From an uncultured bacterium (lineage in GTDB: Bacteria > Actinomycetota > Geothermincolia > Geothermincolales > Geothermincolaceae): a stretch of 64,000 bases of DNA. Shown here piece by piece: positions 5,989-46,446 of this stretch. The DNA lies in the NCBI GenBank assembly GCA_963765625.1, contig CAVXXD010000006.1, forward strand, positions 371,990 through 435,989, in the 5' to 3' direction. The position numbers and the translations under genes were made by a program. Every line of letters begins with the position of its first letter. The stretch's first letter is position 1. The notes beneath the pieces were generated by a model, which was not told where the DNA came from, did not search any database, and saw only the letters and a list, made by a program, of their open reading frames with translations.

Positions 5989-7203
5989 ATGGCGAGTTGC
6001 GGCAGTGATTGTCAGGAGGGCACTTCTCCGTTCACGCAGGCGGATTCACTGAACATCAAGCACAAGATAATGGTATTGAGCGGCAAGGGGGGCGTGGGCA
6101 AGAGCTCGGTCGCCGCCTGTCTGGCCCTGGGGCTGGCCGACCGGGGGTACCAGGTCGGCCTGATGGACGTCGACTTCCATGGGCCCAGTGTCCCGGTCAT
6201 CTTCGGCCTGCGGGGCAAGAGGGTCCAGGGCGACGAGAGCGGCATCCATCCCGTGAGCGTAGGTGAGAATCTCAAGGTCGTCTCCATCGGCTTTTTTCTT
6301 GAAGAACAGGACGACGCGGTGATCTGGAGGGGGCCGATGAAGATGACCGCCATCCGGCAGTTCATCGAAGAGATCCACTGGGGGGACCTGGACTACCTGG
6401 TCATCGACTCGCCGCCCGGCACCGGGGACGAGCCTTTGAGCGTGGTCCAGCTGATCCCGGGGGCCTGGGGGCTAGTGGTCACAACTCCGCAGGAAGTGGC
6501 CGTGGCGGACGTGCGCAAGTCCATCAACTTCTGCCGTTCTACGGGCATGCGCCTCCTCGGCCTGGTGGAGAACATGGGTGGGCTGATCTGCCCGCATTGC
6601 GGAGAAACGGTCCACGTCTTCGGGCAGGGCGGCGCGGAAAGGATCGCCTCCGACATGGGCGTGGAATTGCTGGCGTCCCTGCCCTTGAGCGAGAGCTTCG
6701 GGGAATGGGCCGACCAGGGAAGAGGCAGTTCCGGGTCCTACCGGGAAGCCGGAGACGTCGCGAACATCCTGGACTCGCTGGTCGATAAGGTCGCAGCCAT
6801 GACCGGAGCCGGGGCTGTAGAGACAAGCGCCGGAAAAAGGCTGGAGGCCGTCGGGGATAGCGAAGCCGGGCTTTATGCCGTGCCCACGGAGAACGGGGTC
6901 CTCTGCGCCCACTTCGGGCATTGCGAGGAGTTCACCCTGGTGGAGGCGGGAGCGGGTGGAGAGACGAAGGTGAAGGAAGTGTGTGCCGCGCCGCCTCACG
7001 AGCCTGGCCTGCTGCCGCCCTGGCTGGCCGACAAGGGAGTGAACACCGTGATCGCGGGAGGAATGGGCTCGAGGGCACAGCAGATCTTCGCGGAAAGCGG
7101 CGTCAGGGTGATATGCGGCGCGCCGGCTCTGCCGCCCCTGCAGGTAGTCGAGGACTACTTGGCGGGCAAGCTGCAGCTGGGCTCGAACGTCTGCGACCAT
7201 TGA
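5989..7203 (+). CDS. Mrp/NBP35/ApbC-type Fe-S cluster carrier ATPase fused to a C-terminal NifX-like domain
   Basis: The ATPase motifs are SGKGGVGKSS (deviant Walker A), DSPPGTGDE and CPHCG. The C-terminal roughly 110 aa (AVPTENGVLCAHFGHCEEFTLVE..VIAGGMGSRAQQIF) matches the NifX-like fold pattern. Confidence 0.9.
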   Translation: MASCGSDCQEGTSPFTQADSLNIKHKIMVLSGKGGVGKSSVAACLALGLADRGYQVGLMDVDFHGPSVPVIFGLRGKRVQGDESGIHPVSVGENLKVVSIGFFLEEQDDAVIWRGPMKMTAIRQFIEEIHWGDLDYLVIDSPPGTGDEPLSVVQLIPGAWGLVVTTPQEVAVADVRKSINFCRSTGMRLLGLVENMGGLICPHCGETVHVFGQGGAERIASDMGVELLASLPLSESFGEWADQGRGSSGSYREAGDVANILDSLVDKVAAMTGAGAVETSAGKRLEAVGDSEAGLYAVPTENGVLCAHFGHCEEFTLVEAGAGGETKVKEVCAAPPHEPGLLPPWLADKGVNTVIAGGMGSRAQQIFAESGVRVICGAPALPPLQVVEDYLAGKLQLGSNVCDH

Positions 7204-9426: not shown

Positions 9427-10579
9427 TCAGAGGCCCAGGCTTGAAGCGATCTCCAGGTGCATCAACTCGCGCGTGCCCCAGAAAAGCTGCAGCCCCTTGG
9501 CGTCCCGGTACAGGCTGGATAGGCGGCATTCCAGGGTGTAGCCGTATCCTCCCGCCATCTCCATGGCCGAGGAAGCTATCTCCTCCAGCTCTGCCGGTGG
9601 CAAACAGCTTGAGCATGCAGGCCTCCGGGTGGAGGGACTCGCCGGCATCCAGGCGGGCGGAGGCTAGATGGAGAGAGGTCGAGACCAGCTCGATGGAGGT
9701 GGCCATATCAGCCATGCGAAAGCTCAGGACCTGATGGCCGGCCAGCCGTTTTCCGCCCTGCTCCCTCTCCAGGGTATATCGCGACGCTTCCCCCAGACAG
9801 GCGCGGGCCATGCCCACCGCCACAGCCGCCACCATGACGGCTGCGCCATCAAAGAGAGGAAGCAGGTCTCTCCCTTGCAAGCCCTCCCGCAGGACGTGGC
9901 TAACGGGAAAAGCGCAGTCCTGCAGCACCAGGGCGTGGTTGGGCAGCCCTTCCCATCCGATGAAGCGGTAGTGGTGGGCCAAGTGCAGGCCTGAGCTTCC
10001 AGAGGGGACATACGCAACCGCGATACCGCCCGGCCCCCTCAAGAACATGAGAATGCCGCTGTCCACTCCTGGGGAAGTGTTGGTGACAAAGCATTTGTTG
10101 CCAACGGCATAAGCCATGTCGCCTCTTGTCTCCAGGGTGGTACGCAAGGCGGTGAAATCGGTCCCCGCCTCCGGTTCGGAAAGGGCTACGGCCCCAAGGA
10201 CATCTCCCCGGGCAAGTTGAGGCAGGAAATCCCGCATCCTCTCCTCGTCAGCCCAGCCGATCAAGCCGGCTGTGCAAGCCAGGTGGGAAAGGAGCATCAT
10301 GGCCATCACGGGATCCGCCGCCGCCAGTTCCTCGATGACTATGGCCGCCTCCACCCAGCCCCCGCCTTCGCCCTCCATCTCGAGAGGGACAACCATACCC
10401 GGGTAGCCCGCGGCGGCCAATTTCTTAAAGCTTTTCAGTGGGGAGCCGGGTTCTCTTCGTGGAAACGGTCCAGCCTCGCGCAGAATCCGGGCGGCGAGTT
10501 CCCGGGCCTGCCCGCGCAGCATATCGTGGGTATCGTCTTTCATACTCATATGATACAGGTCATAAGCCATATGTCGCAT
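9427..10579 (-). pseudogene. acyl-CoA dehydrogenase family protein, one frameshift near 9595
   Basis: The ACAD pattern runs through ..ALSEPEAGTDF..CFVTN..EACMLKLFA. The expected C-terminus AELEEIASSAMEMAGGYGYTLECRLSSLYRDAKGLQLFWGTRE lies in a different frame (track ORF 9427..9648). Confidence 0.75.
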
Positions 10580-10654
10580 CTAATAGACATATGCCCATAT
10601 TAACATTAGAATGACCGTAGTTCATGGACAAAAAGTTCGACGGAGGAGGAAGAA

Positions 10655-11017
10655 ATGAAGGTAGCGATAGTCAAGGATGGAGAGCAGGTCTCTTCACATT
10701 ACGGGCAATCCGAGGGATTCGTCATGGCTGAGGTCGAAGACGGTTCGGTCAAGTCCCGCTCCACGGTTCCGGCACCGGCGGAACATTCCTGTGGGGGCCT
10801 GGCCCAGCTCTTTGTCCAGCACCAGGTGGACACGGTGATTGTGGGCGGCATCGGGGGCGGAGCCATCGGCCACCTCAACGCGGCGGGCATCAACGTAGTA
10901 GCCGGAGCGTCCGGCAATATCGAAGAAGTGCTCTCAAGCTTCATAGATGGATCACTGACCCCTGGAGAAGCGGTCTGCGGCGGCCACGGCCAGTCCGGCC
11001 AGTGCCAGCACGATTGA
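10655..11017 (+). CDS. NifB/NifX-family domain protein
   Basis: The sequence is MKVAIVKDGEQVSSHYGQSEGFVMAEV..VDTVIVGGIGGGAIGHLNAAGINVV. A GGAGGAGG SD precedes it. Confidence 0.85.
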   Translation: MKVAIVKDGEQVSSHYGQSEGFVMAEVEDGSVKSRSTVPAPAEHSCGGLAQLFVQHQVDTVIVGGIGGGAIGHLNAAGINVVAGASGNIEEVLSSFIDGSLTPGEAVCGGHGQSGQCQHD

Positions 11018-15172: not shown

Positions 15173-15952
15173 ATGGAAGAGATCAGGATCGGCGATCTTC
15201 GGATCGCTTACCAGAGCCGGGGCGCGGGGCCACCGCTCATGCTCCTTCACGGGGGCCTGAGTGACAGCAGGGAATGGCGAAGGCAACTGGAGGACCTGTC
15301 CGATACTTTTACCGTTGTGGCCTGGGACGCCCCGGGTTGCGGCAGTTCTTCGGATCCACCGGAGACATACCGGCTACCGGATTATGCCGACTGCCTGGCG
15401 GTGTTTCTCGAAGAACTCGGTATTGCACATCCGCACCTGCTCGGCATATCGTTTGGGGCCGGCCTCGCCCTGGAGTTCTATCGACGCCACCCGGAGACCC
15501 CCAGAACGCTCGTGCTGGCTTCGGCGTACGCCGGATGGGCGGGGTCTCTCCCGCGGGAGGAAGTCGAAGACCGCCTGGAAAGAGGGCTGGAGCAGTCCAG
15601 ACAACCCTTGGCCCAGGTCGCGGAGGAGTTCATCCCGACCCTGTTCTCCAAGCCGGTACCGGCCGAGGTGATCAGGGAGACCACGGCCATCATCTCCGAA
15701 GCCCACCCGGTCGGGATGCGGGTGATGCTCCGCTCTTTCGCCGAAGCGGACCTTCGTGACGTGCTTCCATCCATCAACATTCCCGTCCTGCTGCTCCACG
15801 GTGAACTCGATCAACGTTCACCGATGAGTGTTGCCCGGGAGCTGCATGCCCGAATACCGGAATCGAGCCTGGTGGTGATTCCCGATACCGGTCATGCCGG
15901 CAACCTGGAATCGCCCGAAGCCTTCAGTGCCGAAGTACGCAAATTTTTATAG
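15173..15952 (+). CDS. alpha/beta-fold hydrolase
   Basis: The motifs are LLHGG.., the GISFG nucleophile elbow, and the C-terminal ..GHAGNLE. Confidence 0.9.
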   Translation: MEEIRIGDLRIAYQSRGAGPPLMLLHGGLSDSREWRRQLEDLSDTFTVVAWDAPGCGSSSDPPETYRLPDYADCLAVFLEELGIAHPHLLGISFGAGLALEFYRRHPETPRTLVLASAYAGWAGSLPREEVEDRLERGLEQSRQPLAQVAEEFIPTLFSKPVPAEVIRETTAIISEAHPVGMRVMLRSFAEADLRDVLPSINIPVLLLHGELDQRSPMSVARELHARIPESSLVVIPDTGHAGNLESPEAFSAEVRKFL

Positions 15953-17293
15953 ATCCGCCAGTACCCTGTTGGCGGCCTGTTCGCCGGTGGCGAACCCGCC
16001 TTCCGTGCAGGCTATCAGGAAGAGGTACTCTCCGGCTAAGTGCAGGCCCTTCACGTCCCTGGTGTGATTCTTTAAGAATTCGTGGATGGCGGGGAACTGC
16101 CCGGGGGATTCCAGGTTGATGGCCCTGTCCCACCTTACGCATTCGGTGAACAAAGGCTCGTCGGGGAATTCCGGCCAGAATTTCTGCATCTCCCGGATGA
16201 CCCGCCTGCGCCGCTCCTCCTCGGTGAGCTGGCTGAGCTCCTTGTCGTACCACCCGCCCGTGTAGGTATACATCAGCCCGGCACCTTCCGGCGCCGTCTT
16301 GATGTCTCCGCCGGCGGTGTCGAAGATGGTGGTGAGGAGCGACTTCTCGCTGCCCGGGATGAGGGTGGCCACGAAATGCTTCGGGGTGATCTTCTTTTCC
16401 AGCCCAAACATGTAGTTCCAGGCGGAGCTGTACTTACACGTCTCCAGGGGCTTGCGGATGGTATCGGGCAGGTCCGGCATGATCTGCCGCGCCAATACGG
16501 CATCGGTGGTGCAGATCACCTGGTCCGCTTCGATGAACCCGTCCTTGGTCTCGACCCCCTTGACCTGCTTGCCTTCGATGACCACCTTGGTGACTGGCGT
16601 GGACAGCCGGACGCTGTCCTTCACTTTCTCGTAAAGCCTCTCGTTGATAGACCCCATGCCGTTCTCCAGGATGCATACCCCGCCCGCGAGGAAGGCCAGG
16701 GCGATGATGTGCGAGATAGTAACCTCTTCGGGCCGCGCCAGCACCATGGTGCCGAGGAAAGGCGCCAGGAAATGATCGACGATCTCTGGCCCGCCGTGCT
16801 TCAGCCCGAACTCGGTGGCACTGACGTTGCCCAAGGGCAGGAGCGGCTCGAAGTCCCTGGTGACCTTGTCGAGCTTGCGCATTTCCTTGTACATGGCCAG
16901 CCCCAGCCTGGCGAATTGGGGATAGGCTTTGAGAGGAAGCCCCCTGAACCTGAGCATCTCCGGAGTGTTCTTCAACATCTCCATCGGTTTGCCCGAAAGA
17001 AGGTAATGTTTCTTGCCATTTCGCCAGAAGGCCACCCTCATGGTTGCTTCATGATGCGCCTCACCCGACAATCCCAGCTCCCTGATGAGCCTGCCGGTCA
17101 CGTCCCACTGCGTCTCGGTGAAGCCGGCGCCGAGGGGGAGAAGGAATCCGTCCCTTCTCAAGCTCCAGCAGCGCCCGCCCGGCCGGTCACTGGCCTCGAA
17201 GGTCAGTACGTCGACCCCGGCTTTCTTCAGCTCGTAGGTCGCCGTTAATCCGGCACAGCCTGCTCCAATTACAACAACCGGTTTCTTTTCCAT
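15947..17293 (-). CDS. FAD-dependent oxidoreductase (amine-oxidase/protoporphyrinogen-oxidase-like)
   Basis: The sequence is VVVIGAGCAGLTATYELKKAGVDVLTFEASDRPGGR, the GxGxxG-x17-E dinucleotide motif with a GG tail. The C-terminus is LHLAGEY. Confidence 0.85.
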   Translation of the reverse strand: MEKKPVVVIGAGCAGLTATYELKKAGVDVLTFEASDRPGGRCWSLRRDGFLLPLGAGFTETQWDVTGRLIRELGLSGEAHHEATMRVAFWRNGKKHYLLSGKPMEMLKNTPEMLRFRGLPLKAYPQFARLGLAMYKEMRKLDKVTRDFEPLLPLGNVSATEFGLKHGGPEIVDHFLAPFLGTMVLARPEEVTISHIIALAFLAGGVCILENGMGSINERLYEKVKDSVRLSTPVTKVVIEGKQVKGVETKDGFIEADQVICTTDAVLARQIMPDLPDTIRKPLETCKYSSAWNYMFGLEKKITPKHFVATLIPGSEKSLLTTIFDTAGGDIKTAPEGAGLMYTYTGGWYDKELSQLTEEERRRRVIREMQKFWPEFPDEPLFTECVRWDRAINLESPGQFPAIHEFLKNHTRDVKGLHLAGEYLFLIACTEGGFATGEQAANRVLADL

Positions 17294-17431: not shown

Positions 17432-18094
17432 TCAAACCGAGCGATTTCTGGCGCTTCGAGAAGCAATGGTCCTAGTATACGCGGCCAGCTCCGCTTCTAC
17501 CTGCTCAATGGCAATGCCGGGCTTCATGCCGGCAAGATTCTCGACCGGGGCCACCCTGCTACGACCACCCTTCTTCAACAGGCGCTCCATCTTTTCAAGG
17601 TCGGTATTCACCAGCAAGGTGCCGTGATGAAGAATGCGCCCTCTCGACCTCGCCTGGGCCGAGCCGGATATCTTGCGCCCCGACACATAGATGCTGTTCG
17701 GTTCCACCCACTCCCAGGGCAACCCCAATGATTGCAGGAGGCGCGTTACCGGAAAAGACAGCAGCCTCAGACTTTCCTCGACGTCGCAAGCCGGGAGGTT
17801 CGCTTCTTCCAGATAAAGGGAGTAGTTCAGGTTGCCGGGGTCGTGGAAGACGGCTCCGCCTCCGCTCACCCGTTTCAGCACGGGCACCCCCAACCGTTTC
17901 GCCTCCCCCAGGTGGACTTCTTCCTCGGGCTTCAAGAACCTGCCCAGCACTACGCAGTCACTGTTTCTCCAAATGCGGAAGGAAGGCCCGTTCACGTTTC
18001 GCATGTAATCAGCTTCCCGGCGGAGGTTCTCCGCGGGATCAAGGGTCGGTTCCTCGGCCAACCTTTCAAGATCCGGGTGGAGCAACAACCTCAC
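17432..18094 (-). CDS. lipoate-protein ligase family protein (BPL/LplA/LipB catalytic domain only)
   Basis: The motifs are RVSGGGAVFHDPGNLNYSL and GRKISGSAQ (catalytic Lys motif). It overlaps the upstream DGC gene. Confidence 0.8.
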   Translation of the reverse strand: MRLLLHPDLERLAEEPTLDPAENLRREADYMRNVNGPSFRIWRNSDCVVLGRFLKPEEEVHLGEAKRLGVPVLKRVSGGGAVFHDPGNLNYSLYLEEANLPACDVEESLRLLSFPVTRLLQSLGLPWEWVEPNSIYVSGRKISGSAQARSRGRILHHGTLLVNTDLEKMERLLKKGGRSRVAPVENLAGMKPGIAIEQVEAELAAYTRTIASRSARNRSV

Positions 18095-18515
18095 CAGCTT
18101 CTACCAGGGCGTCTATCTTCTTTACGATTTCCCGGGCCAATCGTTCAGTGAGCTCCCGTTCCAGTTCACCCGGGTGGGAGCGCGACAGCTTGACGTCAAC
18201 CCCCCACTCTTTCAGCAGGGCACGGATGTCGATGGCGTCCCGTACTTTGCCCGAATACTTCTCGGTGGAGAGCCGGGCGCAGGCCTTGCCGCACCCGTCC
18301 ACGGATATCACCGGCACCTTGTTGGCGAACTCCCGCTCCCCTCCGTCTCCCGCCAGATACAGGGGGAGGCACAGGGAGACGGTTATCCCCGGACGGTACT
18401 TCTCCATGACCAGGCGCACCGCATTGCGGGCAATGGTGCCCTCCGGCTCGGCCTCACCCGAGCACGAGAGGACTCCTACGAATTTTGGCTTGGCCTCCAG
18501 TGCCATCTCAATCAC
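18066..18515 (-). CDS. DGC-domain (putative zinc/thiol-binding) protein
   Basis: The motifs are VLSCSGEAEPEG..LCLPL..VISVDGCGKACA, the DGC motif with conserved Cys. Confidence 0.75.
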   Translation of the reverse strand: MIEMALEAKPKFVGVLSCSGEAEPEGTIARNAVRLVMEKYRPGITVSLCLPLYLAGDGGEREFANKVPVISVDGCGKACARLSTEKYSGKVRDAIDIRALLKEWGVDVKLSRSHPGELERELTERLAREIVKKIDALVEAGEVVAPPGS

Positions 18516-18915
18516 CGCCCTTCAGGAGCTCTTCTATCTCCGAGGCCAGTTCCTCCGACATGGCCTCCACCAGCTTGCGTCCTCCCTCACCGATGTCCAG
18601 TACCGTCTCCGGCTTGAGGTCCTTGTGCTTCTTCAGGTAGTCCTGCACGCGATGGGCGATGTCCGGAACCTTTCCCGCCGTTTCGACGTTTATACGCGCG
18701 CAGTCCTTCGAGCACCCGTCGATGGCTACCACGTAGTTGTTGCGCGCCAACTCGCAGGCTTCCTCGTCCCCCATGGTCAGAAGGGCCAGGCAGAGCGTGT
18801 CGGCCTTGTCGGGCAGCAGGTCCTCGACTACGCGATATGCGGCCTCCCTGCCCACGGAGGCCGAAGCCTTGCCGATGCCGCTGCAGGGAATGACGTAGAC
18901 TTTCTTCTCATCCAT
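18508..18915 (-). CDS. DGC-domain protein
   Basis: The motifs are VIPCSGIGKASASVGREAA..LCLALL..VVAIDGCSKDCA. It overlaps both neighbouring genes by 8 nt. Confidence 0.75.
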   Translation of the reverse strand: MDEKKVYVIPCSGIGKASASVGREAAYRVVEDLLPDKADTLCLALLTMGDEEACELARNNYVVAIDGCSKDCARINVETAGKVPDIAHRVQDYLKKHKDLKPETVLDIGEGGRKLVEAMSEELASEIEELLKGGD

Positions 18916-19774
18916 ATCTTTCCTCGCTCTCCTTCCTTACCTTCTCCTTGAGATACGCGAGGTACGCGTCGCAATCCATGAGCAGCTCGCGATCACTTTC
19001 CAGATCGGCCAGTTCTACTTCGACGGCCCAACCAGATATGTAGGGGTCCTGGTTGATGAGCTCGGGGTTGTCCACCAGCTCCCGGTTGACCGCCACGACC
19101 TTGCCACTGACCGGCGAGATGATGTCCAGTGCGGTCTTAGTGGACTCCAGCGAACCGGCATCGTCGAACTGCTCCAGTTCCTTCCCGACCTCGGGCGGTT
19201 CGAAGAAGACCATGTCCGAGGCGCTCTGCTGCACGTAATCGGAAACACCCAGCCGGGCCCGGTTGCCTTCCACCCTCGCCCAGCAGTCGTTCTCATTGAA
19301 GAAATATCCTGCCTCGGGCACCTTGAAGATGAACTTGCCCTCCATGAACTCGCTCATCTCCACGTCTTCCGCGAACAGCCCTGAAGATGCCCCTTCCTCT
19401 CCTGCGGCTCCCTCCTCGCTCAGGCCCTCCAGCTCGGCAAGCAGGCGGGCGAGATGCTCGGGGTCGGGTACCGGGTTCTTGCCACCTTTCAGTCCCATGC
19501 CCTTGAGCATCTCGGTGACGTTCAGTTTGCCGGCGAGCTTCAAACCCTTCTCCCTGGCCAGCTTGGAAGCGCAACCGGTCTTGCAGCCGTCAATCACCAG
19601 TAACTCCCCCGCATCGATCTCCTTCTCGTAGCGTTTGGGGTTGCGGTTGAAGAGTACCGGGCAGACCAGGGCGGCTCCGTCTTCAGCCAGCCGTAAGGCA
19701 GCCTCGCGCGCCAAAGCCCCGGCCTCCTTGTCCAGGCCGTTGCACGGCAGCACGGCCTTACCTTTACCCTTCAT
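18908..19774 (-). CDS. DGC domain fused to a glycine-cleavage-H-like lipoyl carrier domain
   Basis: The N-terminus is VLPCNGLDKEAGALAREAA..VIDGCKTGCA. The C-terminus, ARLGVSDYVQQ..LESTKTALDIISPVSGKVVAVNRELVDNPELINQDPYISGW, aligns with the E. coli GcvH segment [21 protein letters not shown], including the lipoyl Lys. Confidence 0.8.
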   Translation of the reverse strand: MKGKGKAVLPCNGLDKEAGALAREAALRLAEDGAALVCPVLFNRNPKRYEKEIDAGELLVIDGCKTGCASKLAREKGLKLAGKLNVTEMLKGMGLKGGKNPVPDPEHLARLLAELEGLSEEGAAGEEGASSGLFAEDVEMSEFMEGKFIFKVPEAGYFFNENDCWARVEGNRARLGVSDYVQQSASDMVFFEPPEVGKELEQFDDAGSLESTKTALDIISPVSGKVVAVNRELVDNPELINQDPYISGWAVEVELADLESDRELLMDCDAYLAYLKEKVRKESEERYG

Positions 19775-20057
19775 CTCGGCCCTCCTCGCGCAGCTTCTTT
19801 ATCAGCGCGGTGGTCTCCTTCTTGTCCGGGAAGGAGAGGGCGTCAGGGGCGCAGGTCTTACCGCAAGCCCGGCAGAAGACCACGCAATTCCCGGGGTTGG
19901 CGACCACCAGCTTGTGCTCCTCACCGTCCCGCCGCTCGAAGACCTTGTGGGGGCAGAACTCGTCGCACTCCATGCAGAAATCGCACTTGTCGTAGTCTAT
20001 AGTGGGGCACCAGGGGATCTTATCGCGTGGCACCCCCATGAAGGTAGCGTCACTCAT
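19764..20057 (-). CDS. 4Fe-4S ferredoxin-domain protein
   Basis: The ATG at 20055-20057 (MSDATFMGVPRDKIPW) overlaps the upstream stop by 8 nt. The motifs are CDFCMECDEFCP and CVVFCRACGKTC. Confidence 0.7.
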   Translation of the reverse strand: MSDATFMGVPRDKIPWCPTIDYDKCDFCMECDEFCPHKVFERRDGEEHKLVVANPGNCVVFCRACGKTCAPDALSFPDKKETTALIKKLREEGRDEG

Positions 20058-20439
20058 CTTCCTCAACCCCCATCTCTTTGAGGGCGGCACGGACTTTCTC
20101 AATCGCCTCATCGGTGGTCAGGTCCCGGATGTCCAGGGGTATCAGGTCGGTCTTGACGTCCATGCCGGCTGCCGCGAAGGCATCCCGGAACATCTTGTAC
20201 TGCATGGTGGGGGCGCATGCCGCAACCACCACTTTGCGCTTTCCTTTAAGGTAATCGGCCAGGAAACGGTCGCCGTCCTCCTCGCAGAGCTGGGGGTGGA
20301 TGAAGCCGTACTCCACCGGTAACTCGATACGCGCCTGGTTGATGAAGTCCCAGATGTCCATCTTGTCGAAGCCGGCACATTTGCCGGTACACACGCACAT
20401 GATCAATCCAGGTTTTTCATTTTCTTCCATGTTCCTCAT
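20050..20439 (-). CDS. Cys-rich protein resembling a stand-alone fragment of heterodisulfide reductase subunit A (HdrA)
   Basis: The sequence IMCVCTGKCAGF..VEYGFIHPQLCEEDG..KVVVAACAPTMQYKMFRDAFAAAGMDVKTDLIPLDIRD parallels the HdrA segment I recall (CHCGxNI..C..G..VVVASCTPRTHEPLF..AGLN..ANIRD). The start could instead be the ATG at 20430. Confidence 0.5.
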   Translation of the reverse strand: MRNMEENEKPGLIMCVCTGKCAGFDKMDIWDFINQARIELPVEYGFIHPQLCEEDGDRFLADYLKGKRKVVVAACAPTMQYKMFRDAFAAAGMDVKTDLIPLDIRDLTTDEAIEKVRAALKEMGVEEDE

Positions 20440-20475
20440 CTCCCGACTTGTCCGGTCGCCTCTATTTCATTCATA

Positions 20476-20497
20476 TTAACAAATATACATTTGTTAA
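20476..20497. promoter_or_regulatory. perfect 9-4-9 palindrome TTAACAAAT-ATAC-ATTTGTTAA (candidate operator)
   Basis: The palindrome is read directly from the sequence. It lies in the only AT-rich gap (20440-20511) of the 12-gene minus-strand array, just upstream of the HdrA-like/GcvH/DGC/LplA block. Confidence 0.4.
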
Positions 20498-20511
20498 TAC
20501 TATAATCCATA

Positions 20512-21054
20512 TCATACCTTTGTCTCCAGGCCGAGCGCTTCGACGATCTCCTCCAGCCTCCGGCGCTTCCCCGAATGCTCCTCGTCGCGGTAGAGGGGCA
20601 GGCATTCCGGCAGGCGATGCTTCTCCTGCAAAAGAAGGATGGAAAAGGCCCAACAGCCCTGCTCCCCGCATTCACGGCAGTTGGTCTGAGGCAGCAGGGC
20701 GTAGATATCCAGTGGCCTGACCTTCACCTTGCCCTCGAAGACCGGCTCGATATCGTCACGATTGTCGTAACAGTAGTTGATCCTCTCCGCCAGCCAGGCC
20801 AGGGTCTCTTCCGCGTCCGCAATATCATCGGCCTTGGCGACGGTCACGTCCTGCCCGTACACCGTCACCAGCCTGTATCCCTTGGTCAAAGTAAGGGCCG
20901 GAAACTTGCTGATATAGGTGGCGTTGGCCAGAACGGCGTTCAGGTAGGGCAGGATCTCACTGACGTCCACGGGAAGGCGGGCGATCAGCCTTATCTTGGT
21001 CTCGTCGGCGAAGCAGGGCTCCACACTCTCTATCTCTATCTTCTCAACCAGCAT
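20512..21054 (-). CDS. protein with a C-terminal CFeSP/RnfB-type [4Fe-4S] domain
   Basis: The segment LLPQTNCRECGEQGCWAFSILLLQ resembles the Fe-S domain found at the N-terminus of RnfB and AcsC. The remaining roughly 120 aa are unassigned. Confidence 0.65.
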   Translation of the reverse strand: MLVEKIEIESVEPCFADETKIRLIARLPVDVSEILPYLNAVLANATYISKFPALTLTKGYRLVTVYGQDVTVAKADDIADAEETLAWLAERINYCYDNRDDIEPVFEGKVKVRPLDIYALLPQTNCRECGEQGCWAFSILLLQEKHRLPECLPLYRDEEHSGKRRRLEEIVEALGLETKV

Positions 21055-21072
21055 GTCTTCCCGCTTCTCTCC

Positions 21073-22245
21073 CTAGATCAGTTCCTGCACCAGCAGCACC
21101 AGGTAATAGATACCTATACCCAGGAACACCACTCCTGCCCCCTTACGTATATATTTCTCCCACTTCTGCACCCGGTCCACGTGACCGGCCCATGTCCCGG
21201 CACCGAAGGCGATGGCCAGGGCGACGATGAGCACCGGCAGGCCGGTACCCACGGCATAGACAGCGGGCAGGTAAAGCCCCCCAGCCGTCGTCTCGATAGC
21301 CAGGGGTATGAGCATTCCGAAGAAGAGAATGGCGCTGTAGGGGCAGAAGGAGAGGGCGAAGACGCCCCCCAGCAAAAACGCGCCCAGGGGACCCTTGTCG
21401 GAGACGCGCTCACCCAGGCGGGCTATGTAACCGCCTTTTAGAAAGCTCAAGTTGATCACGTCCAGCATCACCAGGGATATCAGTATAAGCAGCGGGCCAA
21501 GATAGTATACGGCGGAATTGCGTAAGAACCCGGAGATGTCCACTACGTTGGCTCCCAGGTAGACCAGCGCCAGGCCGAGGGCCGAGTAAGCGGCCACCCT
21601 CCCAGCGGTATAGAGAACACCCGAGAGCGCCGCCCGCCTGCGGTCTTCGATATCTTTGGCGATATAAGCCACGGCCGCTATGTTGGTGGCCAGAGGGCAG
21701 GGGGATATGGCCGTCAGCAAACCCAGCAGGAAGGCGGCAAGCAGGGGTACGCTCTCCAGAGGTATACCCGTGTCCCCGGAAGCCGCGCCCTCGCTAAAAG
21801 CCGTATCTATCTCCTCGGTGATATAGGAGATGGACCCGTCCCGGTCCTCCCAGAGAAACCAGACCTTCTTCAGTTCCTCGAAATCGCCATCCTCAAGATT
21901 CCCAACAACCAGGTAGAGGGACGAACCCACCACGCCGTATCTCTCCACCAGCTCCGAGTTGGCGGGGTCATCGATGGCCAGTTGGGTAAAGGGTATTCCC
22001 TCTTTGTCGTTGCCGGCATAGGACGCGGCGGCTTCTGCCGCGAAAGCTTCGACATTCTCGCATGATACGCAGCGTATGCGGGGATAGAAATAGACCAGCT
22101 GCACTTCTTCATCGGTATCCGCTAAGGCGGAGGATGAAAACGCTCCAACCAGAAATAGCGCCACAAGGACCAAAACGAGAACGGCCGATAGCCGCAATCC
22201 CGGTCCAAGCTCGCTCACAGGTGCTTTCCCGTCAAGGCTTTCCAC
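21073..22245 (-). CDS. thioredoxin-like domain (CVSC) fused to a CcdA/DsbD-type transmembrane thiol-disulfide transporter
   Basis: The protein has a signal/anchor, then VYFYPRIRCVSCENVE. This is followed by a polytopic domain with LTAISPCPLATN and ALSFCPYSA, the two conserved membrane Cys of the DsbD/CcdA family. Confidence 0.8.
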   Translation of the reverse strand: MESLDGKAPVSELGPGLRLSAVLVLVLVALFLVGAFSSSALADTDEEVQLVYFYPRIRCVSCENVEAFAAEAAASYAGNDKEGIPFTQLAIDDPANSELVERYGVVGSSLYLVVGNLEDGDFEELKKVWFLWEDRDGSISYITEEIDTAFSEGAASGDTGIPLESVPLLAAFLLGLLTAISPCPLATNIAAVAYIAKDIEDRRRAALSGVLYTAGRVAAYSALGLALVYLGANVVDISGFLRNSAVYYLGPLLILISLVMLDVINLSFLKGGYIARLGERVSDKGPLGAFLLGGVFALSFCPYSAILFFGMLIPLAIETTAGGLYLPAVYAVGTGLPVLIVALAIAFGAGTWAGHVDRVQKWEKYIRKGAGVVFLGIGIYYLVLLVQELI

Positions 22246-22735
22246 TTATCAAACCGTCCAGGATGCCGCGCATTGAATCGGCGTCGATCACCCCCGAATA
22301 TACATCAACGGGTTGTCCGCTTGCGTCAAGGAATACCGTGGTAGGGATGGTCTGGATGCCGTACTGGTTACACAGGTTCTGTTCGGTGGCATCGTAGACG
22401 TCCACGATGACGAAAGCCACCTGGCCGGCATACTCGGGCTCGACTTCCTTTATCACCTTTTCGATTTCAATACAGGGGGTGCACTTGGTAGAGTGGAAGT
22501 TCAGCAACACGGGTAGGGATACGGCCTTGGCGTCGGCCAACGCTTTCTCGGATGCGCTAACTTTAACGGTGCCCGCAGGCTCAGAGGTAGTTGCCTGGCT
22601 TTCCGGCGGCGTCTGTACAGTATTCTCTGTTGCCTTCTTATTGCAACCACAAAACCCTACAGCAATGAGGGTCAGAGCTGCCGATAAAACCAGAGCGGAA
22701 GCCGCCATCACGGCCCGTTTGGCTCCCCTTTTCAC
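22232..22735 (-). CDS. secreted or membrane-anchored thioredoxin-fold protein (CTPC)
   Basis: The GTG at 22733-22735 forms a GTGA overlap with the upstream stop. The signal-like N-terminus is VKRGAKRAVMAASALVLSAALTLIAVGFCGC. The thioredoxin core is LLNFHSTKCTPC..IPTTVFL. Confidence 0.8.
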   Translation of the reverse strand: MKRGAKRAVMAASALVLSAALTLIAVGFCGCNKKATENTVQTPPESQATTSEPAGTVKVSASEKALADAKAVSLPVLLNFHSTKCTPCIEIEKVIKEVEPEYAGQVAFVIVDVYDATEQNLCNQYGIQTIPTTVFLDASGQPVDVYSGVIDADSMRGILDGLISGKP

Positions 22736-22965
22736 GTCTTGAACCAGCCCAGGACTTCTTTCCTCTTGGGCACCTTGCCCCAAGAGACCACCTTGCCGTC
22801 AATGACCACCCCAGGAGTGGCCATGACGTCATATTTCAGGATCTCGGACATCTCAGTCACTTCCTCTAATTGAGTAGCCTCACCGATTTCGGTCAAGACC
22901 TCCCGGATGATTTCCTTGGTGGCCGTGCATTTGTTACACCCCGTCCCCAACACCTTGATCTCCAT
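22732..22965 (-). CDS. small thioredoxin/glutaredoxin-like protein (redox-active disulfide protein 2 type)
   Basis: The sequence is MEIKVLGTGCNKC...ATPGVVIDGKVV in a 77-aa protein. Confidence 0.85.
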   Translation of the reverse strand: MEIKVLGTGCNKCTATKEIIREVLTEIGEATQLEEVTEMSEILKYDVMATPGVVIDGKVVSWGKVPKRKEVLGWFKT

Positions 22966-22971
22966 CCCGTC

Positions 22972-23364
22972 CTACCTCCTTACCCTCTTTGCAGGCCCCT
23001 GTCCGCAGCAGGCCAGTCCGTCCTCCGGAGAATCGCCTTGCTTGCGATAATCGAGGTAGGTAAGAAAAACGCTTGTAATTGTCGCAAGCTTTCCCCGCTC
23101 CACCGAGTAATAGGATGATGTGCCCTCCTTGCGCAACGAGAGAAGGCCGCTCTCCTTGAGCACGTTGAGGTGGTGTGATGCCAGCTGTTGGGATATGCCC
23201 AGCTCCCCATCCACCTCGCATACGCACCGCTCCCCTTTGAGCAGCAAGCACATTATCCGCAGGCGGTTGGGGTCCGAGAGGGTTTTCAGGGCTTCCGCCA
23301 GTTCGACTATACCAGGGTCATCCACGCACTTGAGGTTGTGTTTTCTCGCCATGCGCTTCTCCAA
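22972..23364 (-). CDS. ArsR/SmtB-family metalloregulator
   Basis: The motifs are LSDPNRLRIMCLLLKGERCVCE..LGISQQLASHHLNVLKESGL, plus a C-terminal CC pair. Confidence 0.9.
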   Translation of the reverse strand: MEKRMARKHNLKCVDDPGIVELAEALKTLSDPNRLRIMCLLLKGERCVCEVDGELGISQQLASHHLNVLKESGLLSLRKEGTSSYYSVERGKLATITSVFLTYLDYRKQGDSPEDGLACCGQGPAKRVRR

Positions 23365-23483
23365 TCACTTCTCCAATCACAAACTTCCGCTTTAACTAAT
23401 ATCTATTTGTAGATTAGCACAGTAGAATGATTATTTGCTAATGTGATTGGAGTGGATGGAATTATGGAAGGGAGGATGTTGTC

Positions 23484-23807
23484 ATGAGAATGTTAGAGGA
23501 ATTCTTTCCGGAGTTTACTCAGAAGCTGGACGAGATCGATCAACTCTATCTGGAAAAAAGAATGATTGACGAAAAGACATATCAATTTATCTGCTTTGCC
23601 CTTTCGATCAAAGGCCGCTCTAAGCCTTGCGTGCTCAAACATTTCAAAGGCGCGCTCGAAGCCGGAGCTACGGTCCAGGAGCTGTCTTATATCTTCGCAT
23701 TGACGATGCGCGAAGCAGCGGGAGCGGATGATTGCTGGACGCATGACGTTCTCGGGGATTGGCAGGATATTGTTGCCGGAAAAACAAGCTGTGACTGTAA
23801 GAAGTAG
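23484..23807 (+). CDS. carboxymuconolactone decarboxylase (AhpD-like) family protein
   Basis: The sequence is FPEFTQKLDEIDQLY..KTYQFICFALSIKGRSKPCVLKHFKGALEAGATVQEL. Confidence 0.8.
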   Translation: MRMLEEFFPEFTQKLDEIDQLYLEKRMIDEKTYQFICFALSIKGRSKPCVLKHFKGALEAGATVQELSYIFALTMREAAGADDCWTHDVLGDWQDIVAGKTSCDCKK

Positions 23808-23813
23808 ACCGGC

Positions 23814-24623
23814 ATGAGAAGACCGGGCTTGATCGATATCGCCAGGACCCGCCGTTCGGGCCGGGTGATGATGCGGATTATCGAGGACGCGTTCCGGGCG
23901 ACCCGGCTTCCGTTGATAGGAAAGCTGCCGCTCCTGGGAGAAAAATACAACAACATGCGATGGCTGCCCGTCAACGAAGGCATCCGGATGCATGAGGACG
24001 CCCCCATGCCGGCCGACATCATCTACCGCTTTATCGACGAAGCCTCACGCCGGGCCATCCTGAACAATTGCGAGTGCCGTAAGGTCTATGATTGCCGGCA
24101 TCACCCCACCGACATCGGCTGCCTCTTCCTGGGAGATTCCGCCTGCGAAGGGCCCCCCGGCATGTTCCGCGAAGCCAGCGTCGAGGAGGCCAGGGAACAC
24201 GTGGGCCGGGCACTGGAAGCGGGGCTGGTGCCGATGGTCGGCAAGAACTTCATAGACAACGTCCTCTTCGGTATCAAGGAGCGCCACAAGCTGCTGTCGA
24301 TCTGTTTCTGCTGCGAGTGCTGCTGCATCAGCCGGTACGTACGGCATTCTCCTTCCAGGGTGATAGATTCGACATTTCCCAGGCTGGAAGGCGTCACGGT
24401 AGAGGTGACGGATGAATGCACCGGCTGTGGCACCTGCGTGGACCACTGCTACATACAGGCGATGCATGTCGTCGGGGGCAGGGCGGTGATGGCCGAATCC
24501 TGCCGTGCCTGCGGGCGCTGCGCGACCGCTTGCCCCAACCATGCCATCAGGGTAAGCATCGACGACCCCGAATATCTGAATAAGTGCTACGACCAGATAC
24601 GCTCCTTGATCAAATTCGACTGA
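23814..24623 (+). CDS. poly-cysteine (CFCCECCC) protein with a 2x[4Fe-4S] domain, paralog 2
   Basis: The motifs are NNCECRKVYDCRHHPTDIGC, SICFCCECCC, CTGCGTCVDHC and CRACGRCATACP. The exact start is uncertain. Confidence 0.75.
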   Translation: MRRPGLIDIARTRRSGRVMMRIIEDAFRATRLPLIGKLPLLGEKYNNMRWLPVNEGIRMHEDAPMPADIIYRFIDEASRRAILNNCECRKVYDCRHHPTDIGCLFLGDSACEGPPGMFREASVEEAREHVGRALEAGLVPMVGKNFIDNVLFGIKERHKLLSICFCCECCCISRYVRHSPSRVIDSTFPRLEGVTVEVTDECTGCGTCVDHCYIQAMHVVGGRAVMAESCRACGRCATACPNHAIRVSIDDPEYLNKCYDQIRSLIKFD

Positions 24624-24654
24624 GAAGCACTCTGGAAGCGGGAAAGGATGAACG

Positions 24655-25665
24655 ATGGGCGGATTGTTAGAAGAAGACGGGAGACCGGGTAACGTCGACG
24701 AGAAGGGCAACGTCCTCTTCCTCGACGAGGACCGCATGCGCCGCAAGGAGAAGCCCGGCAAGAAGATATACCGGCCGTGGAGTGACCCGTTCGGCATCCT
24801 CGACGCGTTCGTCAATGCCGCGGCGATACGCCGGTGGAACTACTGGGTCATCCACTACGGCTTTCCGTACCTCCGCAAGGGAATCGAGCTCTTCGGCAGG
24901 CTGGGCCCGTTCGGGTCGAGGGTTTTCAAGCACGGGGCCATGCTGGCGCCAGAGTCGAAGGCGTACACCACCGGCACCGTCTACAACCTGAACGTGGACC
25001 TGGAGGACCAGGCCAGGAATGTCACCCTGCCCATTGACTTCGTCAGGGAGGCTGTCCTGAACGCCGAGTACGTCGCGGGCATGAACCAGTGCTTCTGCCG
25101 CGACGGCTATAACTGCGGCGACTACCCGCACGACCTGGGGTGCCTGTTTTTAAACGGCAGCGGGCGCGCGGTCGTCGAACACGGCATCGCGACCGAGTTC
25201 ACCAGGGAGCAGGCGCTCGAGCGCATCGACCGCGCCGCCGGGCTCGGGCTGGTATGCCAGGCACTCTGGGTGCAGGTGGAGCGGTTTCTGTGGGGACTTA
25301 CCAGCGACAAGATGAACGAGTTACTGGAGATATGCTTCTGCTGCCCGTGCTGCTGTGCCGGCCTGAGCCTGTGCATTGCCGGGGACCGCAACGTGAAACA
25401 GAGGTTCGCCCCCAGCGGCTGGACCGCCGTGTGCGACCGTGAGACGTGCGACGGCTGCCGCGATTGCGCCCCGCACTGCCCGCAGGATGCCATCAGCTTC
25501 CGCGAGGGCGACGGCAAGCAGGTAATCGACCAGGAGGTCTGCATGGGCTGCGGTATCTGCAAGATGCATTGCCCGAACGGCGCCATCAAGATCAAGCAGA
25601 CGATGCCCATGCGGGAGAGCCTGCACGCGTACTTCCTTGAGGAGGGGCGCCTCGACCTGAAATAA
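24655..25665 (+). CDS. poly-cysteine (CFCCPCCC) protein with a 2x[4Fe-4S] domain, paralog 3
   Basis: The motifs are NQCFCRDGYNCGDYPHDLGC, EICFCCPCCC, CDGCRDCAPHCP and CMGCGICKMHCP. Confidence 0.75.
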   Translation: MGGLLEEDGRPGNVDEKGNVLFLDEDRMRRKEKPGKKIYRPWSDPFGILDAFVNAAAIRRWNYWVIHYGFPYLRKGIELFGRLGPFGSRVFKHGAMLAPESKAYTTGTVYNLNVDLEDQARNVTLPIDFVREAVLNAEYVAGMNQCFCRDGYNCGDYPHDLGCLFLNGSGRAVVEHGIATEFTREQALERIDRAAGLGLVCQALWVQVERFLWGLTSDKMNELLEICFCCPCCCAGLSLCIAGDRNVKQRFAPSGWTAVCDRETCDGCRDCAPHCPQDAISFREGDGKQVIDQEVCMGCGICKMHCPNGAIKIKQTMPMRESLHAYFLEEGRLDLK

Positions 25666-25721
25666 GATAGTCCCGCGCCCTGATTCCATGGCTTGGAGAG
25701 AAAAGACAAGGGGAGGAAAAG

Positions 25722-27257
25722 ATGAACGACGCGTGGGACGCCATAATCGTAGGAGCCGGTGTGGGAGGGCTGTCTGTCGGAGCGCTGCTGGCGAAGCAAG
25801 GCTACAAAACCCTCATCATCGAGAAGGATGACCGGGTCGGCGGCCGCGCCCTGACGCTCAGGGGCGAAGAGGTCTCGGATAAGGGAGCGGAGTGGTACGA
25901 ACAATTACTGGCCGGCCAGTACACTTATCTTGCCGCGGCCAGCCCTTCCATAAAGGAGATATCGGACGGGCGAATGCTTGACGGCTATACCCTCGACCTT
26001 GGTTACCATGCTCTAAGTTGCGCGGGGGAAGGATATTTCGCGGTGATGCAGGAGCTCCTCGGCGGCTTTGGCCAGCATCCCCTGGTGATCACGCCCTGCA
26101 ATTGCGCGACCTGGTTCGACGGCATGTTCATGCTCGATGCTCCCGTGCTCTCCCTGGATTTCGATCCGAGGGTGCTGGCGGACATGGAAAAACACGGCCT
26201 GAACTTCATGGATTTCTTCGGAGACCTGGCCGGCATCACTCCCGAGCAACTCGAGGAGCTGGACAAGGTGTCGGTACAGGAGCACATGGAGAAGATAGGG
26301 TTCACCAAGAGCGACATCCTCTATGCGATCATGAAATGCAGCTGCACCCTGGCGACCACCATCAACAACCCCAACGACATATCCATCGGTGACATCATCA
26401 GGTATTTCAGCCAGGTGCTCCTTCCCCTCATCATCATGAAGGGCAAGCCCGGATATCCCGCGGGGTTCAGCGAAAGGGGCTCGGCGGCTTGGCCGGAATG
26501 CGTGGCGAAGAGGTTCGAGGAGTTCGGTGGCGAGACCAGGTTCGACACCAGCTTGAAAGGCATCGAGATAGAAGACGGCCGCGTGGTGGGGGTGACCACC
26601 GAGTCCGGGGGAAAGGAAGTATCGTTCAAGGCCCCCGTCGTCGTCTACAACCCTCCCGTGCAGGACCTGTTCAAGTACGCTGCCGATTCACACTTTCCCC
26701 CGGATTTCGTCTCGCGCGTCAAGTCGCTCTACGGGTATGGCAGTATCACCCCTTACTTCGGCTTGAACGACCTGGTGATCCCCGGGGAACATGCCGAAAG
26801 GCTGGTCAAAACGCCCTGCGTCGTCAAGAAGGAAGAGGGCTTCGACTGGGACATCTACATGGCATGGAACGTCCAGTCATATCTCGATCCGACCTGTGCC
26901 CCCGCGGGCAAGCACCTGTTGACCGCATACCTTCCCGTGACGGAGCAAGAGTCCCTGGACCCCGTCAAGGTAAAGAAGATAATCGACGCCGTCCCGGACT
27001 TCTTTGAATCCGTCTACCCCGGCTTCAAGGAGTCCGTCGACTGGGAACTGTATCCGGTCTGCTGGAAGCTGGAAGGCGTCGCCAAAAGCGTCAGCCAGGC
27101 GGGCAGCCTCAAGCCGGACGTCAAGGCTCCCGGCGTGGAGGGGCTTTATTTCGCGGGGGACACGGTCAGGTCATACGGCGTAGGCATGGACGGCGCCTGC
27201 TCCAGCGGGATCCTCTGCGCCTCGGCGATCACGGGCGAGGATTTCGGCGTTCACTGA
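25722..27257 (+). CDS. FAD-dependent oxidoreductase (phytoene-desaturase/amine-oxidase-like)
   Basis: The sequence is [37 protein letters not shown], with the C-terminal segment LYFAGDT. An AAGGGGAGG SD precedes it. Confidence 0.85.
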
Positions 27258-27276
27258 AACAGCCGGGGGGAAGGCT

Positions 27277-28302
27277 TTGTATTGCACGAACTGTGGTAAA
27301 GAGATCAAAGAAGGCTATCGCTTCTGCATGCAATGCGGGAAACCAGTCAACAATGTTGTCCCGCTGCCAAATGCAGAGGATGACGTAGAAAGGTTGATCG
27401 AGGGTCTTGGTGATGAAGACCCGAATGAGCGCCTCCAGGCTGCCGTAGATCTCGGGAGAACCGGTGACGCGAGGGCGGTGGAGCCGCTTATCAAAGCGTT
27501 AGGGGATGGGGATATCGGCCAATTCGCCGCGGAGGCACTCGGGAGAATAGGCTGTGCGAGGGCGGTGGAGCCGCTTATCAAAGCGTTAGGGGATGGGGAT
27601 CCGGATATCGGTCCATACGCCGCGGAGGCACTCGGAAAAATAGGTGGAGAAAAGGCCGCGGAGGCGCTTCTTGACGCACTCTCAGATAAGAATAGGCATG
27701 TGGACGTGCGCGGCGAATCCGCGGAGGCCCTGGGGAAGATGGGCGATACGAGGGCAATAAGGCCGCTTATTGAGGCACTGGTGAACGGGGACAAACGCTT
27801 TCGTTTAAAGGCTGCTTGTGCACTCGGCGATATTGGTGGCGACGAGGCGGTGGAGGCACTTATTGAGGCACTTGTGGATGAGGATATCGATATATGCCAA
27901 CGCGCCGCGTGGTCCCTCGGCGAAATCGCCAGCGAGCGATCGGTAGAGCCGTTGATCGAAGCATTGGTGGATAGAGCGTCAGCGGCGGCGGCCGACGCGC
28001 TTGGAGCGATTGGTGACCCTCGCGCGGTAGAGCCGTTGATCGAAGCATTGAAGAATGAAGATAAAGCCGTGCGCATGGCTGCTACGGCTGCGCTCGGCGA
28101 AATCGGCAGCGAGCGATCGGTAGAGCCGTTGATTGAAGCACTAAGAGACGAGGAGTACTTTATAAGCTTTCGAGCCGCGGAAGCCCTGGGAAAAATAGGT
28201 GACCCTCGCGCGGTGGAGCCGTTAACAGCTGCGCTCAGGAACAAGGACGATAATGTAAGCAGAAGTGCAGCCGAGGCTCTCGAAAAGATACGCATGCGCT
28301 AA
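27277..28302 (+). CDS. zinc-ribbon plus HEAT (PBS-lyase-type) repeat protein
   Basis: The N-terminus is (TTG)MYCTNCG..FCMQCG. It is followed by about ten 31-aa repeats of the form ..RAVEPLI(K/E)AL.D.D..VR..AA.ALG.IG. Confidence 0.85.
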
Positions 28303-46440: not shown

Positions 46441-46446
46441 GGCGTC

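Follow-up and report, generated by a model that had tools for sequence, protein, structure and literature searches.

Arsenite and organoarsenicals, lewisite among them, classically attack the lipoyl dithiol, and in Mycobacterium tuberculosis the Lpd-DlaT-AhpD-AhpC peroxidase chain uses protein-bound lipoyl as an electron carrier. Lipoyl carriers resembling the H-protein of the glycine cleavage system (GcvH) are also found outside glycine cleavage: the sHdr-LbpA system includes a GcvH-like carrier with its own ligase and Hdr-related Fe-S proteins (eLife 2018, PMC6067878), and the GcvH-L/LplA2/SirTM/macrodomain operon is reported to encode a second, non-metabolic H-like lipoyl protein, likewise provided with its own ligase and linked to stress (PMC4518038, PMC12440151). 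Here, we analyse a 64-kb stretch of contig CAVXXD010000006.1 from an uncultured bacterium of the Geothermincolaceae (hereafter, the window), in which six overlapping minus-strand open reading frames (ORFs), at positions 17432-20439, encode a protein resembling one domain of HdrA (X129), a ferredoxin, a fusion of a DGC domain with a GcvH-type domain (the DGC-GcvH fusion), two stand-alone DGC proteins (DGC-B and DGC-C) and a lipoate-protein ligase of the LplA type. We propose, with a probability of roughly 45%, that these genes form the core of a module for the handling of arsenic that is controlled by ArsR and specific to strict anaerobes, and in which the working group would be the protein-bound lipoyl dithiol.

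The distribution of the module was surveyed with one genome per species; 138 loci were found, of which 80 were fetched, and the counts given below refer to these 80. Clustering took in every ORF up to 7.5 kb away from the fusion, and cluster representatives were checked with NCBIfam and Pfam. Hundreds of two-domain homologues of the DGC-GcvH fusion are present in databases. The hosts of the fetched loci include Actinomycetota, the phylum of Candidatus Geothermincola and of the closest relatives of the window (68-82% identity), the acetogens Acetobacterium, Clostridium ljungdahlii, C. ragsdalei, Eubacterium and Moorella, other Bacillota, Bacteroidales, Armatimonadota, non-photosynthetic relatives of Cyanobacteria (Melainabacteria), Dehalococcoidales and Asgard archaea; all of these named hosts fall in anaerobic groups. 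The order X129-ferredoxin-fusion-DGC-DGC is colinear in essentially all of the loci, which supplies the survey of synteny that the initial annotation, made from the DNA letters without database searches, had called for. This five-gene order was met again in 80/80 fetched loci from many phyla, and the arrangement is far beyond chance. Among the plasmids of PLSDB the fusion was not found, and only ordinary gcvH genes were matched.

The link with arsenic comes from the neighbours of the module in these genomes. Any gene of the arsenic resistance (ars) type is found in 63/80 loci, one or more of the established ars genes (ACR3, ArsC, ArsA, ArsD, ArsM, ArsP) in 44/80, and ArsE/F/G-like genes in 32/80. 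An ArsR is encoded in 58 loci, and of 24 ArsRs adjoining the module in loci other than the window, 23 have a CxC motif. The other recurrent neighbours are an ArsE-like protein of the MTH895/ArsE family (28 loci), ACR3 (23), an ArsG-like protein (22), ArsC (19), ArsM and ArsA (13 each), ArsD (10), two clusters of ArsP-type permeases (10 and 12) and a CDF metal transporter (10). A dihydrolipoyl dehydrogenase (Lpd) is encoded nearby in 23 loci, in about a dozen of which its gene immediately precedes X129 on the same strand, and a cysteine-desulfurase-family protein (TIGR01977, above cut-off) in 17. The initial annotation had read the six genes as a generic thiol/redox module: this holds as regards a non-canonical lipoyl carrier, its idea that DGC domains may exchange electrons or sulfur with the lipoyl arm stays conjectural, and it had overlooked the ArsR-headed operon with ArsE-, ArsF- and ArsG-like genes in which they lie. 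With ACR3, ArsC, ArsA, ArsD, ArsM and ArsP as neighbours elsewhere, the generic module thus becomes an arsenic-linked one.

Components of the module are also found in ars units apart from it. In Acetobacterium (L010:5352-7160 (-), with equivalents in L012, L013, L018 and L019) a separate ArsR-DGC-ArsC-ArsC operon lies divergent from the module and a Lpd-ArsA-ArsD unit downstream; therefore, DGC and Lpd are each found in ars units separate from the module. Furthermore, in P. mercurii ND132 an ArsR-ArsP-ArsE-DGC operon, which differs from the module, has been reported to be up-regulated by arsenic (bioRxiv 10.1101/2022.10.17.512643). As for the fusion itself, which the initial annotation had supposed to be uncharacterised, no paper on it was found in the literature, nor any description of DGC with lipoate or of GcvH with ars genes, and a review of the distribution of ars genes mentions neither the fusion nor the module. 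In databases the proteins are labelled 'glycine cleavage system H protein' or 'putative zinc-binding protein', and DGC is annotated as a putative zinc-binding domain.

Judged from its sequence, the module is a lipoyl carrier system of the GcvH type, non-canonical and accompanied by an LplA-type ligase of its own, and not an ordinary gcvH: the lipoyl lysine is kept, an Asn-Asp-Cys triad in the pocket is invariant and no glycine-cleavage genes are found among the scanned long ORFs of the window. The fusion consists of a DGC domain (C11, C38, C64 and C68), a disordered linker and an H-protein domain with the lipoyl lysine, Lys213, in which the lipoyl-lysine hairpin E-S-x-K is kept. The initial annotation had made its idea depend on conservation of this lysine in orthologues; it is invariant in the alignment of the fusion family and in all 79 fusions of the loci. 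In Foldseek comparisons the H-domain (the C-terminal 130 residues) matches H-proteins with a template modelling (TM) score of about 0.9 and 33-40% identity (1onl_A: E 1e-13, TM 0.90), the identity to GcvH-L (5a35) being 22%. The same domain passes the subfamily model NF002270 (121.4 vs a cut-off of 117) and fails both the gcvH equivalog model TIGR00527 (113.3 vs 115.85) and the GcvH-L model TIGR03077 (55.2 vs 144).

In the H-protein of Escherichia coli, Glu12-His13-Glu14 line the cavity where the aminomethyl-lipoate arm becomes locked (PMC7733448). In a pairwise alignment these residues correspond to N162-D163-C164 of the fusion, and the pocket motif continues with W165; FNENDCW is present in 79/79 locus fusions, and NDCW in 112/120 database homologues. 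By this alignment, the fusion no longer has the pocket feature used in glycine cleavage, and the thiol of Cys164 would be positioned, by analogy with the E. coli protein, where the distal sulfur of the lipoyl arm docks. One locus from a marine actinomycetote (L007) has two extra stand-alone H-like genes, at 4228-4824 (+) and 10239-10769 (+): one has the pocket motif NADCW and no lipoyl lysine (PTERLTL replaces ESxKxA), and the other, directly 3' of the LplA gene, has a more canonical look (KHMW, TESFKFV).

When the locus is compared with the described systems, the likeness to glycine cleavage GcvH is in the H-protein fold, in the lipoyl-lysine hairpin, in the adjacent LplA-type ligase of the window and in the L-protein adjacent in 23/80 loci, whereas the N-terminal DGC Cys4 domain, the replacement of Glu12-His13-Glu14 by Asn-Asp-Cys, the lack of P- and T-proteins nearby and the location in ars operons set the fusion apart. 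As the initial annotation had stated, no glycine-cleavage T or P, Lpd or 2-oxoacid dehydrogenase is encoded among the scanned long ORFs of the 64-kb window; neither GcvT nor GcvP is among the recurrent neighbour clusters of the 80 loci. In sHdr-LbpA, as here, a GcvH-like carrier is accompanied by its own ligase and by Hdr-related Fe-S proteins, but the module has only X129, without a flavin HdrA, HdrB/HdrC, DsrE or TusA among its recurrent neighbours, and its partners are DGC proteins and ars genes. Initially, hdrBC and dsrE/tusA had also been said to be absent from the window, where the scan of small ORFs for them was not exhaustive. Near the module there is no sirtuin/macrodomain cluster, unlike in the GcvH-L/SirTM operon, and the H-domain is nearer to canonical GcvH. 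Membership of either system was rejected, since the defining partners are absent and the model scores lie below cut-off, in keeping with the distinction drawn at first. The M. tuberculosis chain is similar in its use of a protein-bound lipoyl dithiol as electron carrier from a reductase to thiol-disulfide proteins, and an AhpD-like gene adjoins the operon; in contrast, the carrier of the module is of the H type and not an E2, the input would be ferredoxin and Fe-S proteins, and the output is presumed to be arsenic, not peroxide. Finally, with the accessory systems ArsEFG, ArsD/ArsA and ArsC the module has in common control by ArsR, co-encoded ArsE/F/G-like proteins and cysteine thiols (the metallochaperone ArsD, ArsC), although, among described ars determinants, none was found that relies on a lipoyl cofactor, on a DGC domain or on an HdrA-like Fe-S protein.

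No Pfam family matches X129. Against the PDB, a profile of 32 orthologues aligns with the N-terminal domain of HdrA over residues 5-93 (7bkb_A, E 1e-4; 9sfi; 5odc; 8rvu), and a weak HdrA match in NCBIfam covers the same residues, which bears out the label of HdrA fragment given to this protein at the outset; the FAD-binding, thioredoxin-reductase-like core and the ferredoxin domains of full HdrA are missing. Five cysteines (C15, C17, C21, C52 and C75) are invariant in the alignment of this small family of stand-alone proteins of 100-135 aa. Identity across phyla (Actinomycetota, Bacillota, Bacteroidota and Asgard archaea) is 64-87%, much higher than for the fusion (44-88%) and the DGC proteins (31-83%), and such conservation points to very tight constraint and/or to a recent horizontal transfer along with ars islands. 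The ferredoxin has the pattern CxxCxxCxxxCP ... Cx3Cx2Cx3C and is predicted to bind 2x[4Fe-4S]; the eight cysteines are found in 77/83 homologues, and its best resemblance in NCBIfam, below cut-off, is to the HgcB-type ferredoxin.

The three DGC units, namely the domain of the fusion, DGC-B and DGC-C, are distinct conserved paralogues, all of them above the Pfam cut-off of PF08859, and in the alignment of each family four cysteines, including that of the D-G-C motif, are conserved. In DGC-B the invariant residues are C11, C42, C68 and C72, which, in an AlphaFold2 (AF2) model of high predicted local distance difference test (pLDDT 94.8), are predicted to follow beta-strands of an alpha/beta domain; DGC-C, its paralogue (hhalign probability 99.7% between the two families), also has four invariant cysteines. 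A Foldseek search with the DGC-B model, a three-layer alpha/beta fold, gave no significant PDB match (best E 0.19), and profiles of both stand-alone families found no match in the PDB. Homology of DGC to the X129/HdrA-N domain, which was considered, is unsupported (hhalign probability 1.7%). DGC-C homologues in several genomes (L021, L032, L034, L040, L051, L067, L068, L071) have C-terminal tails rich in Cys and Gly, such as GGCGCGCGC, GCGCGCGCGC and GGGGCCCCGGNCGE, which look like soft-metal ligands, and in two loci of the Armatimonadota type (L017:9311-9991 and L054:9316-9996) DGC-C has an extra C-terminal domain of ~70 aa.

The ligase had been described as an LplA-type protein reduced to its catalytic domain. 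This is confirmed by its family match and by its best matches in the PDB (1vqz and 1x2g), which cover the catalytic domain only; the Lys motif that binds lipoyl-AMP is present, GRKISGSAQ aligning with GKKFCGNAQ of 1vqz. The C-terminal accessory domain, which, or else a separate LplB, is needed for the formation of lipoyl-AMP, is absent: the protein matches residues 5-173 of a 328-position model and scores 132.6 on TIGR00545, against a cut-off of 280. In the window its gene overlaps that of DGC-C; in the 20/80 loci where LplA is found it usually comes straight after DGC-C, and both short and full-length versions occur.

From the domain content, residue invariance, synteny and ars linkage observed directly, we infer the following course of events, in which every step is conditional. 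From what is known of its family, ArsR would release the 11-gene operon once a thiophilic metalloid binds its CVC site. The adjacent LplA would load lipoate or octanoate onto Lys213, as the invariance of the lysine and its hairpin suggests. Low-potential electrons would enter through the 2x[4Fe-4S] ferredoxin and X129, whose fifth invariant cysteine may act beside the cluster, as in ferredoxin:thioredoxin reductase, and the three DGC Cys4 proteins would relay them, holding the lipoyl arm as a dithiol; in about a third of the genomes an adjacent dihydrolipoyl dehydrogenase could reduce the arm from NADH. The dihydrolipoyl arm would dock in its usual pocket, where the invariant Cys164, in place of Glu14, would complete a three-thiol centre. 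From this substitution and from the chemistry of arsenic, such a centre could bind trivalent arsenicals and/or reduce pentavalent ones by a thiol cascade like that of ArsC. The thiol-bound arsenical would then be handed to the co-encoded efflux or methylation proteins, which, to judge from the neighbourhoods, may be ArsG here and ACR3, ArsA/ArsD, ArsP and ArsM elsewhere.

Several points weigh against this proposal. Seventeen of the 80 loci have no ars-type neighbour, though several of these are short contigs, and within the 64 kb of the window there is no ACR3, ArsB, ArsC or ArsM; the ArsR family, moreover, also includes sensors of persulfides and of other metals. A lipoyl carrier would itself be inhibited by arsenite, which suits a role in binding and is awkward for a purely catalytic one. 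DGC is a fold without a solved relative, and its cofactor could be Zn, Fe-S or free thiols. The AF2 model of the fusion (pLDDT 84.7, predicted TM score (pTM) 0.54) gives no reliable inter-domain geometry, and the presumed proximity of Cys164 to the arm is read off the E. coli H-protein, not from coordinates of the fusion.

The main rival, which we consider unlikely, is a pure electron relay, a lipoyl-based 'thioredoxin system' without contact with arsenic, in which the lipoyl-GcvH domain would receive electrons either from ferredoxin, by way of X129 and the DGCs, or from NADH, by way of Lpd, and would pass them on to thiol-disulfide enzymes of the ars operon, either to ArsC or, across the membrane, along a path from ArsE through the DsbD-like ArsG to ArsF/thioredoxin, as in the M. 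tuberculosis chain. Two Fe-S carriers are always present and Lpd is near in 23/80 loci; a cytoplasmic, thioredoxin-like ArsE shares the operon with a DsbD_2 membrane protein and with thioredoxin domains outside the cytoplasm, here and in 32/80 loci, single DGC genes adjoin thioredoxin-type ArsC genes, and the AhpD-like gene of the window is divergent from arsR. A carrier based on dihydrolipoyl, a prime target of arsenite, would be fragile under the very stress it serves, and such a relay leaves unexplained the invariant change of Glu14 to Cys and the Cys-rich tails; many loci, moreover, have neither ArsC nor ArsEFG-like genes. The reading of the fusion as an ordinary gcvH, serving glycine cleavage or a reductive glycine system among unrelated neighbours, can hardly be credited and was rejected: the match to NF002270, the H-protein fold and the many acetogens among the hosts would suit it, but the domain is below the TIGR00527 equivalog cut-off, E12, H13 and E14 are invariably N, D and C, GcvT, GcvP and Lpd are absent from the scanned long ORFs of the window, as are GcvT and GcvP from the recurrent neighbours, and the module is embedded in ars operons.

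Less likely than the electron relay are two further explanations. A general buffer against thiol, metal or oxidative stress riding in arsenic islands, that is, a GcvH-L-like antioxidant or a Zn/Cd-binding set, is distinctly improbable. It would agree with the annotation of DGC as a putative zinc-binding domain, with the CDF transporters in 10/80 loci, with the 17 loci without an ars-type neighbour and with the reported promotion of oxidative-stress resistance by GcvH-L of Staphylococcus aureus (PMC12440151), but it does not account for the linkage to specific arsenic genes (ACR3, ArsA/ArsD, ArsM, ArsC, ArsP), often in one operon or divergent with ArsR; SirTM/macrodomain partners are also missing, and the H-domain is closer to true H-proteins than to GcvH-L. 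An outside chance, lower again, is given to sulfur transfer or arsenic thiolation, in which the lipoyl arm and the DGC cysteines would carry sulfane sulfur in an LbpA-like manner and form or cleave As-S compounds (thioarsenicals) or persulfides, with ArsR as a persulfide-type sensor. Here, the cysteine-desulfurase-family gene of 17/80 loci, a rhodanese in several Bacteroidales loci and the score of the window ArsR on the model of the sulfite/persulfide sensor BigR, which is below cut-off, are set against the absence of desulfurase and rhodanese genes from the window and from most loci, the lack of HdrB/C, DsrE and TusA among recurrent neighbours, and a CVC arrangement typical of metalloid sensors.

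If the arsenic-handling role of the lipoyl module holds, its consequences concern organisms in which the O2-dependent enzymes of organoarsenicals, ArsH, ArsI and ArsV, cannot work. A stronger form of the proposal, which we regard as doubtful, is that anaerobic bacteria and Asgard archaea possess an unrecognised, O2-independent arsenic resistance in which a reductase or chaperone for arsenicals, driven by ferredoxin, would have the lipoyl dithiol and the pocket cysteine as its reactive centre. The module could then be the missing O2-free enzyme for the reduction or capture of methylated and aromatic arsenicals and would give a function to the orphan DGC domain; the lipoyl group, a textbook victim of arsenic, would have been turned into a part of resistance by means of a pocket cysteine, and a cofactor-based mechanism would join the ars repertoire. 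The module is conserved in many anaerobic phyla, among them Bacteroidales and Clostridia of the gut, acetogens used in industry and Asgard archaea, and it is a candidate answer to how inorganic and organic arsenicals are dealt with in organisms that lack glutathione or O2-dependent enzymes. The DGC domain and the stand-alone HdrA-N-like Fe-S protein would also gain a first link to a function, and the non-canonical roles of lipoate would grow in number. There is a real chance of a new kind of arsenic-resistance mechanism.

In the window, an operon of 11 genes at 17432-23364 (Table 1) is headed by arsR and has the six genes at its distal end; the five others, on the same strand (FeS180, ArsF/ArsG, thioredoxin, ArsE and ArsR), lie upstream with small gaps or overlaps. 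The six ORFs are confirmed at the coordinates initially given; two motifs quoted at that time, ESTKTALDIISPVSG and RVSGGGAVFHDPGNLNYS, are found in the window, as is KISGSAQ. The end of the span at 20439 could not be kept, since the operon runs upstream to 23364, and the overlaps of 8-29 nt hold if the ferredoxin starts at an internal ATG at 20057 (MSDATFMG, similar to the homologues), which makes it 97 aa long and not 115.

Table 1. Genes of the ArsR-headed operon and candidate operator, in positions of the window
Feature	Positions	Strand	Evidence
Inverted repeat ATTAGCA-N16-TGCTAAT 5' of arsR, candidate operator	23413..23442	-	sequence scan
ArsR/SmtB-family repressor, first gene of the operon	22972..23364	-	NCBIfam NF033788, 87 bits vs cut-off 55
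MTH895/ArsE-family thioredoxin-like protein, 77 aa	22732..22965	-	TIGR00412, 93.5 bits vs cut-off 62
Thioredoxin with N-terminal hydrophobic, lipoprotein-like segment; start codon uncertain	22232..22783	-	Pfam Thioredoxin
ArsF-family domain (residues 48-148) fused to ArsG-family DsbD_2 membrane protein (165-384)	21073..22245	-	NCBIfam NF040494, 64.6 vs cut-off 60; NF040495, 266.4 vs cut-off 200; Pfam DsbD_2
FeS180, 180 aa, Cys motif of AcsC/CdhE/RnfB N-terminal Fe-S domain	20512..21054	-	PF04060, 34 bits vs cut-off 23
X129, stand-alone HdrA-N-terminal [4Fe-4S]-domain-like protein, 129 aa	20050..20439	-	profile vs PDB
Ferredoxin, 97 aa, eight Cys	19764..20057	-	Pfam Fer4
DGC-GcvH fusion, 288 aa	18908..19774	-	PF08859, 61 bits; PF01597, 112.6 bits
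DGC-B, stand-alone DGC protein, 135 aa	18508..18915	-	Pfam DGC
DGC-C, stand-alone DGC protein, 149 aa	18066..18515	-	Pfam DGC
Lipoate-protein ligase of the LplA type, 220 aa, reduced to the catalytic domain	17432..18094	-	PF21948, 162 bits

The ArsE, ArsF, ArsG and ArsR assignments are predictions from family models, all of them above NCBIfam cut-offs. The window ArsR has a CVC motif in the region of its DNA-binding helix, an arrangement typical of metalloid-sensing members of the family, and a C-terminal CC pair. The inverted repeat 5' of its gene is suggestive only as an arsR operator; other loci, too, have palindromes between their divergent ArsR and X129 genes. At 23365-23400, just 5' of arsR and reaching into its start region, GTGATTGGAGAA occurs twice as a tandem direct repeat. 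The thioredoxin is probably extracytoplasmic, to judge from its N-terminal segment, and has homologues in 15/80 loci.

FeS180 is a neighbour of the module in 22/80 loci and is repeatedly paired, ~2-3 kb from the fusion, with the cysteine-desulfurase-family gene (TIGR01977, also similar to the selenocysteine lyase SclA), as in L009, L010, L012, L013, L016, L018, L019, L025, L027, L028, L045, L058 and L074; the window has FeS180 without the desulfurase.

Divergent from arsR, a string of plus-strand genes at 23484-28302 encodes an AhpD/CMD-like protein of 107 aa, two Cys-rich proteins, of 269 and 336 aa, whose Fer4 domains are C-terminal, a flavoprotein of 511 aa that resembles phytoene desaturase and a protein of 341 aa with HEAT repeats. 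This string may share the intergenic region controlled by ArsR, and it is not recurrent near the module in other loci. Downstream of the operon, an amine-oxidase-like flavoprotein (15947-17293) was considered as a member of the module and rejected, not being a recurrent neighbour. Elsewhere in the window, a region of ~64% GC at 44926-48890 has overlapping long ORFs (504, 533, 640 and 469 aa) without a Pfam match, and an ORF of 1025 aa without a family match lies on the strand opposite to a gene at 30044-33658 (-), whose product of 1204 aa, with DUF11, InlB B-repeat and DUF5719 domains, is probably located at the cell surface. Finally, a P-loop ATPase of the Mrp/NUBPL type, encoded at 5989-7203 (+), is fused to a domain resembling those that bind the FeMo-cofactor of dinitrogenase (PF10609 and PF02579).

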